Assembly: GCA_045535075.1 (NCBI GenBank)
Contig: JAZSKX010000018.1
Location: 224,001 to 288,000, forward strand
DNA from: Candidatus Spyradenecus sp.
GTDB lineage: Bacteria; Verrucomicrobiota; Verrucomicrobiia; Opitutales; UBA953
Direction of reading: 5' to 3'
DNA: 64,000 nucleotides
This document shows, one piece after another, positions 1,160-59,370 of this stretch (position 1 is its first letter; each line of letters begins with the position of its first letter). The notes under the pieces were generated by a model. It was not told the origin of the DNA. It ran no database searches and saw only the letters and a program-made list of their open reading frames with translations. A program made the translations under genes and the position numbers.

Positions 1160-1201
1160 AAAAAGGCGTTCCCGCATGTACTTCACGGGAACGCCTTTTT
1201 T
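1160..1201. terminator. Bidirectional intrinsic terminator built from two inverted copies of the GCGGGAACG-type motif
   Basis: AAAAAGGCGTTCCCG-catgtacttca-CGGGAACGCCTTTTT between convergent mcsB and fhs. Confidence 0.85.
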
Positions 1202-1216
1202 GTAATGTTTTTCCGA

Positions 1217-2848
1217 TTACACGCCGAGCATACCGGTAATATTTCCGTCGGCATCCAAGTCGATGGATTCCGCGCAAGGCAATTTCGGGAGCGCCGGCAT
1301 GCGCATGATGTCGCCGGTAAGCGCCACAAGGAATCCGGCTCCGGCGGCGATTTCAAAATCGCGAACCGTAATTTTGAATCCTTTCGGGCGCCCGAGTTTT
1401 GTCGGATCATCGGAAAGCGAATTTTGTGTTTTCGCCATGCAAATCATCATTTTATCGCCGCCGGCAAGCGTCAGCGATTCAAGTTTTTTCAAGGCTTTCG
1501 GCAAAATGACAACACCGTCCGCGCCGTACATTTCCTTAGCGATTATTTCAAGCTTTTCGGCGACGGGAACGTCGAGCGGATAAAGCGGTTTAAACTCCGG
1601 CGACGGTTTTTCGCAAGCTTCGCAGACGAGTTTGGCAAGCTCCGTACATCCGGCACCGCCTTCGGCAAACGAGCCGGCGTATGCCGCAGGAACGCCCTGC
1701 GCCGCACAGAATTTTTCGACCGCTGCGAATTCTTCCGGCGTATCCGTCGGGAATTTATTGAGCGCAACAACAATCGGACGCCCGAATTTCTTTGCGGAAT
1801 CGATATGCGCACCGAGATTTTCCAAGCCGCGTTCGACAGCGGCAACATCCGTTTCCGTAAGTTCTTTCAAGCCTTTTCCGCCATGCATTTTGAGCGCGCG
1901 AATCGTCGCGACGATAACAACCGCATCCGGCGCAATTCCCGCCGAGCGGCATTTGATATTGAAGAATTTTTCGCCGCCCAAATCGAAGGCGAATCCGGCT
2001 TCCGTAATTGCATAATCGGCGTAGCTCATCGCCATCTTCGTCGCGATAACGGAGTTACAACCTTGCGCAATATTGGCAAACGGCCCGCCGTGCACAAACG
2101 CGGGAACGCCTTCAACGCTCGCGACCAAGTTCGGCTTGAGCGCTTCTTTCAAAATCGCCATGAGCGACCCCGTCACGCCGATTTCTTCCGCAAAAACCGG
2201 TTTGTTTTCAGCGTCAAACCCGACAACCATTTTGTTCAGGCGGGAACGCAAATCGTCATAATTTTCCGCGAGGCAAAGAATTGCCATGATTTCCGACGCG
2301 ACCGTAATATCAAAGCCGCTTTCACGCGGAACGCCGTTCCCGTTGCACCCGACTACAATATTGCGCAGCGAGCGATCGTTCATGTCGATAACGCGCTTCC
2401 ACGTGATGCGGCGCGTATCCAAGCGCGTATTACGGAAATAAAGTTTGTTGTCAATCGCCGCCGCCAACAAATTGTGCGCCGAGGTGATTGCATGAAAATC
2501 GCCCGTAAATTGGAGATTGATTTCCGTCGCCGGCTGAACCGTACTTTTCCCGCCGCCGGTTGCGCCGCCTTTGCGACCGAAAACCGGTCCCATCGACGGT
2601 TGGCGAAGCGCGAGCGCCACATTTTTGCCGATAAGCTTCATGCCCTGTGCCAAGCCGATCGAAGTTGTCGTCTTGCCCTCGCCCGCCGGAGTCGGCGTAA
2701 TGGCGGAAACAAGAATCATCTTACCGGTTTTTTTCCCGGACTTTAAAGCTTCAAGGGCGATTTTCCCCTTGTCGCGTCCGTAGGGTTCCACCATTTCGGC
2801 GGAAATTCCGAGACTGTTTGCCAAAGTGAAGATAGGAAGGTTTTCCAT
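1217..2848 (-). CDS. fhs: Formate--tetrahydrofolate ligase
   Basis: TPTPAGEGKTTT, KGGATGGG, VHGGPFANIA, TEAGF, ICMAKTQ. Confidence 0.96.
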   Translation of the reverse strand: MENLPIFTLANSLGISAEMVEPYGRDKGKIALEALKSGKKTGKMILVSAITPTPAGEGKTTTSIGLAQGMKLIGKNVALALRQPSMGPVFGRKGGATGGGKSTVQPATEINLQFTGDFHAITSAHNLLAAAIDNKLYFRNTRLDTRRITWKRVIDMNDRSLRNIVVGCNGNGVPRESGFDITVASEIMAILCLAENYDDLRSRLNKMVVGFDAENKPVFAEEIGVTGSLMAILKEALKPNLVASVEGVPAFVHGGPFANIAQGCNSVIATKMAMSYADYAITEAGFAFDLGGEKFFNIKCRSAGIAPDAVVIVATIRALKMHGGKGLKELTETDVAAVERGLENLGAHIDSAKKFGRPIVVALNKFPTDTPEEFAAVEKFCAAQGVPAAYAGSFAEGGAGCTELAKLVCEACEKPSPEFKPLYPLDVPVAEKLEIIAKEMYGADGVVILPKALKKLESLTLAGGDKMMICMAKTQNSLSDDPTKLGRPKGFKITVRDFEIAAGAGFLVALTGDIMRMPALPKLPCAESIDLDADGNITGMLGV

Positions 2849-2919
2849 AATGCGGAGAGCATAAAAACGCTTTCGCGGGAACGCAAGCGACGATTCTTTC
2901 CAATCGTTTTCCCGTCGTT

Positions 2920-3204
2920 TTACGATTCCGTCGCTTGCTTGGCTTGCCCGTTCTTTTCTTTTTGCTTGGATTTAAAATTTTCAACAACACTCTTCCCGTA
3001 GCGCAAATTCTCTTCCTGTGTCAGCACCCTTTCGGCGCATTCTGCGAGAATTTACTCCGGAGAGTCTATTTTCTTGGTGAACACCTTTGACTCCAAACTC
3101 TGCCAATAACTTACACCGGACAAAGTTTCCGCTTTCAAAGGTAGGGCAAGTAAAAGAGAGGCAAAAACAACTCTTATCGTAATGAAATCCTCGTTTTCGT
3201 TTAC
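2920..3204 (-). pseudogene. Possible decayed secreted-protein gene
   Basis: Frame reads ..VVFASLLLALPLKAETLSG..DSPE*ILAEC..ATES*, with a signal-peptide-like stretch, one internal TAA (3052-3054) and no clear start. Confidence 0.25.
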
Positions 3205-3211
3205 TTATTCT

Positions 3212-3649
3212 TCAAGAGAAAATTCCTTTTCTACCAGAACTGTAGGTATAATCGCGCACTATCGGATTTTCCAGTGTAATTAAAATTCCTTTACTGTTTC
3301 TGCGTGCGAGCAAATCGTAATAGCCGACACTCCATGATTCAATTTCCGTTCCCTCAACCGCTTTCCAGGCAGAATTCTCTGATGAAGTGACGAAAGACAA
3401 ATTAACTGTTCCGCCATGCCACGCTGTCGCATGATACATATTTTGGGCCGATGCGATTTCGAGGGCAGGCAGGACAGGGACAACAGAATCACCTGATTCC
3501 TCACTTAAAACATTCGGAGTAGCAAAAAATATTCCCATGAAAACGAACAGGAAGAGCACGCCCGCCCTCTTTAGCGTTTGTTGGGAGAAACATTCTTTCA
3601 ATACCGGAGGCTTTTGCCTTCTCAATCTTTCCTCGTCAACACGCTCCAC
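3212..3649 (-). CDS. Hypothetical secreted/membrane protein, possibly truncated
   Basis: 145-aa ORF with hydrophobic segment GVLFLFVFMGIFFA; AT-rich; no family recognised. Confidence 0.4.
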   Translation of the reverse strand: MERVDEERLRRQKPPVLKECFSQQTLKRAGVLFLFVFMGIFFATPNVLSEESGDSVVPVLPALEIASAQNMYHATAWHGGTVNLSFVTSSENSAWKAVEGTEIESWSVGYYDLLARRNSKGILITLENPIVRDYTYSSGRKGIFS

Positions 3650-3903
3650 GGGAACGAAGAGTACTCAACAACGAACTATTTTCAAACAATCTCTTCCGCA
3701 CTGATTTCTATTCCGCTTGTTTTTTTGAGGATTTGTGCGCTAATAGAGGAGAGCTTCGTGCCGAACTCCCTCGGCTTTCATCCATCCTCCGGCATTGGAA
3801 CTTTTAAACATTTTAATTTTTAGAACTTGCCTCAAAAAGACTTGTATTTTTCATATTGACGAAGCATTCGTTTGAAGGTTCAATTTTCCTAACCTTTTCT
3901 TTT

Positions 3904-3979
3904 GGGGGCGTAGCTCAATTGGTAGAGCGTCTGCATGGCATGCAGAAGGTCGTCGGTTCGATTCCGATCGTCTCCACCA
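3904..3979 (+). tRNA. tRNA-Ala(GGC)
   Basis: Cloverleaf, G3:U70 pair, anticodon loop ATGGCAT, GTTCGA T-loop, CCA end. Confidence 0.97.
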
Positions 3980-58067: not shown

Positions 58068-58097
58068 TTGACGGTTTTTTAGGGGGGGGGGTAGAAT
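58068..58097 (+). promoter_or_regulatory. Sigma70-type promoter with G10 tract in the spacer
   Basis: TTGACG (58068-73), 18-bp spacer GTTTTTTAGGGGGGGGGG, TAGAAT (58092-97). Confidence 0.8.
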
Positions 58098-58130
58098 AGG
58101 GTCTTAGTTCACTCTCAATTGCTAAAACCC

Positions 58131-58853
58131 ATGAAAAAACATATTACTCTCACAGCACTCCTCGTCGCAGGCTCCGCTTTCGCGAATGCAAGCTCGACAG
58201 CCGACTTCACAAAAGAAATTTGGGCCATTAATTTCGGAACGGAATACGCAAACGGATATCAAATAACCGGAGACCTAACCAACGTAGGAACCGTTTGGGA
58301 TATCGTTGCTGTTGAAGGAGGAACACAAACCGGCACGAAGCGAGTCCACATGCAAAACGGAAATTTCGGTTCATGGGACGAAGATTTTAAATTTTCCATG
58401 TCGCTTACGCTTGGCGAAACAATTAGTGCTAGTAACAATTGGCCGGTATTCGCAGAACTTCTCGGAAACGATACCTCCCTCCGCTTCGGACCCTACATCG
58501 GTAATGGGAACAAAGTCGATTTGGACGGAAATCTGACCAAAAACTCAGAAATGGCAGCCGCCGTTGCTCCCGGAGGTTCCTACACAATTGACCTCTACGT
58601 TATGACGACTGACTCCGGAAGAGTTGTAGAAGTATACGTTGATGGAGTCCAAGCGTCCACCGGAACTTTGGCGAATGACCTTACCGGAACGATTGACAAT
58701 CTCTTCCTCGGAGGAGCAAATTACGACTATTATAAAATCAACGAAGTCGTTCACAACATTTCATGGTCAACCATTCCCGAGCCCTCTGCATTCGGTTGGC
58801 TTGCGGGCTTAGGGGCGTTGGCGCTTGTCGGTGCGCGTCGCCGCCGTCGCTAA
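58131..58853 (+). CDS. PEP-CTERM surface protein (beta-rich, lectin-like)
   Basis: Signal peptide MKKHITLTALLVAGSAFANA; VYVDG; IPEPSAFGWLAGLGALALVGARRRRR. Confidence 0.85.
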   Translation: MKKHITLTALLVAGSAFANASSTADFTKEIWAINFGTEYANGYQITGDLTNVGTVWDIVAVEGGTQTGTKRVHMQNGNFGSWDEDFKFSMSLTLGETISASNNWPVFAELLGNDTSLRFGPYIGNGNKVDLDGNLTKNSEMAAAVAPGGSYTIDLYVMTTDSGRVVEVYVDGVQASTGTLANDLTGTIDNLFLGGANYDYYKINEVVHNISWSTIPEPSAFGWLAGLGALALVGARRRRR

Positions 58854-58885
58854 AATTTGTCAGTAATATATTAATTCATATGTTG

Positions 58886-58912
58886 TCCCGCAGAGAAATC
58901 TGCGGGATTTTT
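58886..58912 (+). terminator. Terminator, shortened member of the motif-hairpin family
   Basis: TCCCGCAGA-gaaa-TCTGCGGGA-TTTTT. Confidence 0.8.
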
Positions 58913-59183
58913 ATTTCCTCAACATACGAGGCAAGATTCGTCCGCAAATCTCGTCCTTGGCAACTCCGCAAACGCCGCAAGAGAAGTAAATCGCGGGAAC
59001 GAAAAACATCAAAATCGTCCGCAAACCCTAATGTTTAAACGGAAAATCGCAGTTGCCGGAACTTGCCAGCTTATCGGCAAAACTAGGCGCTTTTGTCAGT
59101 AAACAGCAACTTCCGCAACCATCAAAAAAGCACGAAAAAGCCCGCGAAGCCTTTATTTATCAGCATTCGCGGGCTTTTTTAAG

Positions 59184-59270
59184 TGGTGGTGAGAGAGGGA
59201 TTCGAACCCCCGAACGGTGAAACCGAATGGATTTACAGTCCACGCCCTTTAGCCACTTGGATATCTCACC
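59184..59270 (-). tRNA. tRNA-Tyr(GTA)
   Basis: Reverse complement GGTGAGATATCCAAGTGGCTAAAGGGCGTGGACTGTAAATCCA...CACCACCA. Confidence 0.95.
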
Positions 59271-59333
59271 AAAAAGGAAGTTTTATAATGCCTGAGCTAA
59301 ACGCATTAAGCAAGCATTTTTTCAAAAAAAGAT

Positions 59334-59370
59334 AAAAAAAGCGTTCCCGTAAATCTGCGGGAACGCTTTT
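59334..59370 (-). terminator. Motif-pair terminator of rplI
   Basis: AAAAAAAGCGTTCCCGTA-aatc-TGCGGGAACGCTTTT. Confidence 0.88.

Follow-up and report, generated by a model that had tools for sequence, protein, structure and literature searches.

Inverted pairs of an abundant dispersed word form predicted terminators in a genus of gut Opitutales and resemble DNA uptake sequences

We examined a window of 64,000 nucleotides from a genome of Candidatus Spyradenecus sp., a member of the gut Opitutales in the phylum Verrucomicrobiota (contig JAZSKX010000018.1, positions 224,001 to 288,000). In our numbering the window is G000:C5:224001-288000, where G000 is the assembly of 1,949,087 bp in 18 contigs with a GC content of about 52%; our own gene calls gave 1468 genes and 87% coding sequence. 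The presence of McsB, of PEP-CTERM proteins and of a GreA whose N-terminal part is long agrees with an assignment to the Opitutales. The element in question is a short word, CGTTCCCGY or its complement RCGGGAACG, dispersed on both strands over the whole window (1..64000). It has 114 matches, mostly single and mostly within genes, compared with a mean of 2.89 (standard deviation 1.67, largest 7) in 100 dinucleotide-preserving shuffles. At six places two copies form an inverted pair of the form CGTTCCCG-N(7-12)-CGGGAACG (1167-1193, 40965-40987, 49050-49077, 53428-53453, 55094-55121 and 59342-59365). A first-pass annotation made from the letters of the window had described these six hairpins as terminators, and all of them are found where it placed them, as inverted pairs of the word with A/T flanks. 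By our gene calls they are 0% coding, and in all six the 5' flank is A-rich and the 3' flank T-rich. Folded as RNA they reach -20.3 to -27.7 kcal/mol with z-scores of -5.6 to -8.6, and none of 200 shuffles equals them.

The hairpin at 1160..1201 (gap 11, A5/T6 tails; -23.6 kcal/mol, z -6.7) lies between the convergent mcsB-like gene (57-1133, plus strand) and formate-tetrahydrofolate ligase gene (1217-2848, minus strand) and is a predicted bidirectional terminator. The same prediction applies to 55085..55127 (gap 12, A8/T5 tails; -27.7 kcal/mol, z -8.6), which is flanked by a yoeB-like gene (54618-55076, plus strand) and valS (55143-57863, minus strand), again convergent. The pair of the hairpin at 40958..40990 (gap 7; -23.4 kcal/mol, z -5.6) lies 92 nt 3' of a type III pantothenate kinase gene (40051-40872, plus strand). 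The one at 49046..49082 (gap 12, T tail; -26.3 kcal/mol, z -6.6) stands 31 nt past the gene of a PEP-CTERM protein (48209-49018, plus strand) and ahead of mraY, and 53425..53456 (gap 10, T tail; -27.0 kcal/mol, z -8.2) stands 22 nt past a long greA-like gene (51210-53405, plus strand). The last, 59334..59370 (gap 8; -20.3 kcal/mol, z -7.0), is located 22 nt past rplI (59388-59954, minus strand), between rplI and a tRNA gene (59187-59270, minus strand). The hairpins at 49046..49082 and 53425..53456 are assigned to the plus strand and the other four to neither strand.

A separate terminator scan of positions 40001-60000 returned word pairs as its top four sites, and its fifth was a shortened relative of the pair (58885-58908). 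The first-pass annotation had pointed to two such relatives and to a wider pair, and all three were located. The relatives are plus-strand hairpins with a T tail in which only the partial word TCCCGC..GCGGGA makes the stem: one at 3990..4020, after a tRNA gene (3904-3976, plus strand; -17.1 kcal/mol, z -3.5), and one at 58886..58912, 31 nt past a gene at 58119-58853 (plus strand; -18.4 kcal/mol, z -6.3). The wide pair at 57906..57957 (31-nt gap, no strand assigned; -17.5 kcal/mol, z -4.8) is not counted as a terminator, because it lacks a T tail and is placed between divergent genes, upstream of valS; here the earlier suggestion of a terminator probably does not hold. Its right-hand copy is kept at the same place in 5 of 18 genus genomes.

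In the genome as a whole there are 5159 copies of the core CGGGAACG, counted together with its complement (one every 378 bp), compared with 77 copies of the reversed word used as a control. The word is the commonest k-mer at every k from 8 to 12, and the logo of all copies reads y-R-CGGGAACG-c, with nearly no information beyond these 10-11 positions. Wholly within called genes lie 4331 copies (84%; 2.55 per kb) and wholly outside them 825 (3.32 per kb). The coding copies occupy all six frames, and 20 shuffles of synonymous codons within genes yielded 475 +/- 21 copies (largest 503) against 4337 observed. Put differently, 4337 of the 6060 sites at which the protein would permit the word (72%) are filled by it. 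The proteome is affected as well: tripeptides that the word can encode occur at 1.4-3.8 times the expectation from amino-acid frequencies and at 1.5-2.3 times the frequency of their reverse-order controls. The word is upheld by a force that acts on DNA and not on protein. Strand counts are near-equal (2527 and 2632), and spacing is near random (median gap 262, mean 373), with word-free deserts as the exception. The first-pass annotation had proposed comparing paired with single copies; in the order it described, close pairs hold a minor share, 342 of 5159 copies (6.6%). The terminator pairs are a by-product of this hyper-abundant word.

We defined a close pair as neighbouring copies 0-20 bp apart. 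Across the genome 171 close pairs read CGTTCCCG..CGGGAACG and 29 run the other way round; 140 of the former and 8 of the latter are intergenic. When the 825 intergenic copies are placed at random (500 trials), 13.0 +/- 3.5 pairs of the first kind (largest 25) and 12.9 +/- 3.6 of the second (largest 24) arise. The claim that pairs always stand in one orientation is borne out as a strong bias between genes and fails as a strict rule, given that the window itself contains one pair in the reverse order, CGGGAACG-10-CGTTCCCG at 37472..37497 (no strand assigned), which lies within a coding region and has no A/T tails. The 140 intergenic pairs are distributed over 55 convergent, 82 tandem and 3 divergent junctions, as compared with 225 convergent, 1004 tandem and 221 divergent junctions of all genes. 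A makes up 54% of the 12 bases ahead of a pair, and T makes up 57% of the 12 that follow it. The pairs thus have the make-up of intrinsic terminators, a G+C-rich hairpin followed by a U tract and situated behind genes, with 3 of 140 in divergent gaps. The order bias, the A/T tails and the avoidance of divergent junctions agree with the earlier proposal that the pairs are intrinsic terminators, and we hold with considerable confidence that the hairpins would act as Rho-independent, mostly bidirectional terminators. A further part of that proposal did not survive: no conserved loop corresponds to the inner AATCTGC/AAATCAC segment said to be shared by several hairpins. The loops of the 140 pairs are unrelated and A/T-rich, and their only recurrent feature is the word's own flank, T-C-R before CGGGAACG. 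Since the loops are unrelated, the hairpins are not copies of one mobile element.

We scanned the genome for a hairpin plus T tract behind genes and obtained 525 loci. An exact pair is present in 125 of them, a pair with at most one mismatch per arm in 23, a pair in reverse order in 7 and one copy in 28, while 342 have none. The pair is found in 148 of the 437 loci that fold at -10 kcal/mol or below and in 142 of the 293 at -15 kcal/mol or below, so that the motif share among genome-wide predicted terminators, which the first-pass annotation had left to be computed, comes to 34-48%. Many other predicted terminators use partial stems such as TCCCGC..GCGGGA. Among the assembled contigs of four runs that were compared with the window, those of run X2 show coverage of the greA-like gene dropping near the hairpin at 53425, although assembled contigs cannot show RNA ends; contigs of a run that is probably DNA break within three of the hairpins, an artefact of assembly.

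Each of the 19 genus genomes shows enrichment of the word, with 552 to 7777 copies compared with 74 to 159 for the reversed-word controls. Fifteen high-copy genomes carry 5159-7777 copies (2.6-4.6 per kb), three (G001, G002 and G013) about 1350 each, and G014 carries 552. Outside the genus, the word is at or below control in 102 genomes of four sister genera and at background in 12 other families of the order, represented by one genome each. No dialect of the word was found in the 102 sister-genus genomes. The one-letter variant CGGGTACG was considered as such a dialect when it seemed enriched in a 100-kb sample of the sister-genus genome G031, and was rejected because genome-wide it stands at control level (163 vs 141); in no sister-genus genome does it rise well above control. 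Likewise rejected was GGGTTGGTGG as a second word of G014, where its 1685 copies form tight arrays near contig ends (about 18 bp apart, e.g. C1:2164-2601 and C4:144-639) and thus represent a clustered, species-specific and not a dispersed repeat; each of the other 18 genomes has 0-3 copies.

Over the genome as a whole, the low-copy trio is the group most closely related to the window's genome, so that 2.6 words per kb here stand against 0.65 in the closest species. G002 is 78-88% identical in its main matches over 20 kb of the window, five of the seven largest matches falling on a single contig, and G013 is 80.9% identical over 713 genes, while G016, G010, G007 and G011 are 67-82% identical over the same 20 kb, apart from a valS segment and its flank. 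We compared the survival of word copies with that of all 8-mers in alignments to the window. In the high-copy G018, which has 77% overall identity, 31 of 43 window copies are intact vs 17% of all 8-mers, and 14 copies are its own; in G003 17 of 25 are intact vs 18%, with 17 of its own at aligned sites, and in G009 9 of 22 vs 14%, with 15 of its own. In the low-copy but closer G001, 13 of 57 are intact vs 23% of all 8-mers, with 3 private copies, and in the low-copy G014 2 of 29 vs 12%, with none of its own. Over the 713 genes shared with G013 (788,600 aligned bases), 380 of 1958 copies are intact (19.4%) vs 21.4% of all 8-mers, and G013 has no more than 83 copies of its own. Of 9 sites that have the word in the window, in G018 and in G003, 6 are without it in G001; therefore at least part of the copy difference is loss. 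We conclude that the word is actively maintained in most lineages of the genus and drifts at a neutral rate where maintenance has lapsed.

Two further observations bear on this contrast. In each of the 15 high-copy genomes the variant CGGGTACG has fewer copies than its reversed control (1-44 vs 48-123), and in G001, G002 and G013 it is level with or above control (92-127 vs 78-104); in G014 it is rare (18 vs 70). Active maintenance may turn near-cognate words into the word itself. The terminator pairs, for their part, still occur in the low-copy trio, and in G014 one terminator retains its stem though both arms have mutated, to CGTTCTCG..CGAGAGCG; therefore the terminator structure does not need the word. 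No stem common to sister genera was seen among 45 strong hairpin-plus-T sites in samples of four genomes, one per sister genus.

We also looked for genes that track copy number. The comparison with G013 covers about 60% of its genome (1,249,330 bases), and it yielded 40 blocks of genes in the window's genome without an orthologue there, flanked by genes that match one G013 contig. Pfam analysis of six such blocks (39 proteins) returned argininosuccinate lyase, gatA/gatC, aconitase, a Clp-type ATPase and a DNA polymerase III delta subunit among others. Housekeeping genes of this kind indicate rearrangement into the other ~40% of G013 rather than absence, and therefore no candidate reader of the word is named from these blocks.

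The word is missing from inserted, low-GC DNA. Gaps of more than 3 kb between copies number 18, compared with 1.65 expected, and the longest are mostly low in GC; two of the word-free deserts contain DNA cytosine-methylase genes. The longest word-free stretch of the genome, 5374 bp with a GC content of 0.428, lies in the window at 5381..10755 and contains a gene for a fusion of RecQ and UvrD/PcrA-type helicases (5513-10342, minus strand; 1609 aa, GC 0.43) without a single word. This gene is missing at the corresponding place in G013, where the flanking orthologues are 4 bp apart. In the comparison with about 60% of G013, blocks missing at their place there carry 0 to 0.8 words per kb. Two large blocks of this sort, G000:C8:22803-35120 with 17 called genes and C16:179995-221508 with 38, have 0.41 and 0.77 words per kb, respectively, as compared with 2.6 overall, and are probably islands or prophage.

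The genome encodes components of a generic DNA uptake machine: ComEC, DprA, PilM, a secretin, three T2SSE ATPases and six prepilin-type proteins. PilM and the secretin share an operon, the three ATPase genes are adjacent, and an operon of four N-methyl pseudopilins (G000:C1:259100-262397) adjoins ruvX near recJ, with two further prepilins encoded elsewhere (C5:99026-99451 and C16:99151-99864). The sole HHH_3 / TIGR00426 match of note lies in an 805-aa open frame that we take as a Tex-like protein and not as ComEA. A second secretin (an open frame of about 780-880 aa) is present in 7 of the 19 genomes, including all four low-copy ones, and a fourth T2SSE ATPase occurs in all four low-copy genomes and is absent from the window's genome and from G016.

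Gene flow between species is suggested by the valS segment (window about 55156-57945). Its identity is 98% to G016, 96% to G007, 94% to G010 and 92% to G011, lineages that are otherwise 67-82% identical over that 20 kb, and in G010 the tract of high identity extends from about 53371 to 57930 (4.5 kb). A housekeeping gene thus appears to have passed recently from one species to another by recombination. Both ends of the tract are near word-pair hairpins, but these are gene ends too. As valS is recombinant, the ValS tree is not a species tree; in that tree the rows of G018 and G005 are wrong-strand shadow frames to be ignored.

Taken together, the word displays each of the statistical features that characterise the DNA uptake sequence (DUS) and the uptake signal sequence (USS), namely abundance, presence on both strands and in all frames, an effect on the proteome, a range that follows a clade, scarcity in acquired DNA and terminator pairs. 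As far as can be computed from sequence, no hallmark of DUS is lacking, and the uptake model favoured by the first-pass annotation gains support at that level: the word is most likely a DNA uptake sequence. We infer uptake specificity, a receptor and termination in vivo from these patterns. The proposed mechanism is that a type IV pilus-type uptake machine would prefer word-bearing DNA, and that homologous recombination of such DNA would spread and preserve the word in the core genome by molecular drive. Where two inverted copies happened to lie behind a gene beside A/T tracts, they would give a strong stem and a U tail, and selection for termination would then retain inverted pairs. Selection on such termination-ready pairs would account for the single orientation, the absence from promoter-side gaps and the survival of pairs where the word decays. 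The combined claim, that these are terminators made of an uptake-type word, seems to us probable. The more specific proposal is tentative: that natural transformation occurs in this genus of gut Opitutales, with CGGGAACG as the signal by which its own DNA is recognised for uptake and with a receptor that is unrelated to ComP.

Several points weigh against this interpretation. A density of one copy per 378 bp and 72% saturation of permitted sites are several times the values reported for DUS and USS, and a different drive may be at work. Neither ComEA nor a ComP_DUS domain was detected in the genome. The four low-copy genomes retain ComEC, DprA, the ATPases, the secretin and pilin genes, and therefore loss of the generic machine does not explain the lapse of maintenance. 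The preferred order of the pairs sets the word's A/U-containing end at the base of the stem, and so terminator strength alone does not obviously dictate the order. Our gene calls are crude, and every statement about coding and intergenic copies rests on them. Finally, uptake bias, transformation and termination are claimed here for an uncultured organism from its sequence.

The first of these points leads to the alternative that survives best, a drive at the DNA level apart from uptake, in which the terminator pairs would be opportunistic. Such a drive could be sequence-specific mismatch correction, gene conversion from near-cognate to cognate words, or dense sites for a nucleoid or genome-maintenance protein. 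Density and saturation above those of known uptake sequences would fit it, as would the retention of a whole generic uptake machine by low-copy genomes, the failure to find ComEA, and the scarcity of CGGGTACG, which is seen in all 15 high-copy genomes and not in G001, G002 or G013. A repair-type drive through Vsr or Dcm finds no support in the distribution of candidate enzymes, as Vsr is present in 1 of 19 genomes and cytosine-5 methylases are patchy (10 of 19), and neither varies with copy number. The remaining features, that is, the genus-wide range, the absence from inserted DNA and the order-biased terminator pairs, match DUS and USS instead, and we know of no drive of this sort that yields a non-palindromic word at such a scale. 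We regard a drive other than uptake as unlikely, though deserving of serious consideration.

It might also be argued that the word is merely the consensus of a terminator stem and that its genic copies are incidental, given the pair's share of predicted terminators, the many partial TCCCGC..GCGGGA stems and the persistence of pairs in low-copy species. This is contradicted by the coding copies, which are ninefold over synonymous shuffles, and 93% of all copies lie outside close pairs of terminator order; moreover, the sister genera have no common stem, and the G014 stem survives without the word. We consider this explanation improbable. The family of REP or REPIN elements (repetitive extragenic palindromes) spread by an IS200-like REP-associated tyrosine transposase (RAYT), which the first-pass annotation had held open, can be set aside for most copies. 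Two Y1_Tnp genes exist (G000:C10:516-854 and C14:6715-7062), and both are flanked by hairpins. They score, however, as IS200/IS605 transposases (64.6 and 61.4 bits, cut-off 55), while against the REP-associated family the first reaches 21.4 bits (cut-off 80) and the second has no match at E <= 0.001. The hairpins beside them belong to a different family, CCRCAGGT..ACCTGYGG, with 8 members in the genome. With 6.6% of word copies in close pairs, 84% genic and the loops of the 140 pairs unrelated, a RAYT origin is very improbable. Ahead of the C10 copy (G000:C10:1-1100) stand about three tandemly repeated units, each of some 145 bp and with such a CCRCAGGT..ACCTGYGG hairpin, and the second Y1 region with these hairpins is G000:C14:6500-7200. 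A polar architecture signal of the Chi (RecBCD/AddAB) or KOPS (FtsK-orienting polar sequence) type is equally far-fetched: the strand skew of the word does correlate with GC skew (r = 0.57, 88 windows of 20 kb), but the split is only 54:46 (1153 vs 979; 920 vs 1171), as any G-rich word would show, the word also follows the gene strand, its strand counts are near-equal where strong polarity would be expected, and it is far more numerous than either Chi or KOPS.

Some features of the window stand apart from the word. The product of the greA-like gene at 51210-53405 is a 731-aa homologue of GreA that is considerably extended at the N terminus, and its top NCBIfam matches are fusion-type GreA models at scores under their cut-offs. 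The GC skew changes sign at about 56000-60000, with the cumulative minimum near 56-60 kb beside rpsF-ssb-rplI; this switch may mark a replication origin or terminus. Segments 41195-41280 and 48937-49020 match dozens of places in each genus genome at 75-89% identity and encode the PEP-CTERM sorting tail of secreted proteins, and are therefore a protein-level repeat and not a DNA element.

To our knowledge, sequence-specific DNA uptake has been documented in only two proteobacterial families, with the receptor known for one and predicted for the other, and order-biased terminator pairs of an abundant word are so far known only from the uptake signals of Neisseria and of Haemophilus relatives. 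Other repeated words and hairpins resemble the present one in part. REP and REPIN elements are likewise repeated palindromic intergenic hairpins, some at gene ends, yet they are defined by a link to RAYT that is not seen here, and the copies of our word are mostly single and genic. HIP1 of cyanobacteria is an octamer of comparable density that saturates genes at silent positions; it is a palindrome, unlike the word, and no methylase or Vsr gene tracks the word.

The closest likeness is to DUS of the Neisseriaceae (GCCGTCTGAA and its dialects), which is likewise short and non-palindromic, occupies either strand both within and outside genes, and is common to related species and missing from foreign DNA. 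According to the accessible portion of the comparison by Kingsford et al. (2007, PMC1852404), about 55% of high-confidence terminators in Neisseria hold DUS, as against 34-48% here, and the two pair orders number 226 vs 5 in N. meningitidis Z2491, as against 171 vs 29 for all close pairs here. Word-encodable tripeptides are about doubled with DUS and USS, roughly as with our word, and genes without homologues lack the signal, as reported in the sections available of Findlay and Redfield (2009, PMC2817400). The differences are that the spelling is unrelated, the phylum is another, the density here is about threefold higher, 84% of copies are genic as against 34.5% in N. meningitidis (65% for H. 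influenzae; PMC2817400, same sections), and neither ComP_DUS nor sister-genus dialects are found here. USS of the Pasteurellaceae (AAGTGCGGT / ACAAGCGGT) is similar in its statistical behaviour, its mostly genic copies and the use of pairs as terminators, where 17-29% of terminators hold USS. It differs in a weaker order bias (50 vs 25 in H. influenzae; PMC1852404, same portion) and in an extended A/T-rich flank that is absent from the logo of our word; its receptor is still described as only predicted in the part consulted of a further source (PMC12616744). The phenomenon of terminator pairs is therefore textbook knowledge for DUS and USS, and what is new is the phylum, the word, its density and saturation and the contrast between sister lineages. 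A search of the full-text literature, which does not cover subscription journals, returned no paper that ties the word, Spyradosoma or Verrucomicrobia/Verrucomicrobiota to uptake sequences.

If the word is indeed an uptake sequence, it would be among the first outside Proteobacteria and a third, unrelated case, with a new word and without ComP, in an abundant gut phylum, and self-tagging of DNA would have evolved repeatedly. In practical terms, the word can serve as a barcode of the species group, and its pairs as markers of operon ends in metagenome-assembled genomes. The genus is a rare natural experiment, with 2.6 vs 0.65 words per kb between close relatives, and offers a direct way of finding the word's reader gene: if the uptake reading is true, the sister species in which the word drifts neutrally have lost or changed the reader, and presence and absence of genes over the 19 genomes could name it. 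On the uptake reading, homologous exchange of genes would moreover be frequent among uncultured Verrucomicrobiota of the gut, and the valS import would be one example of it.

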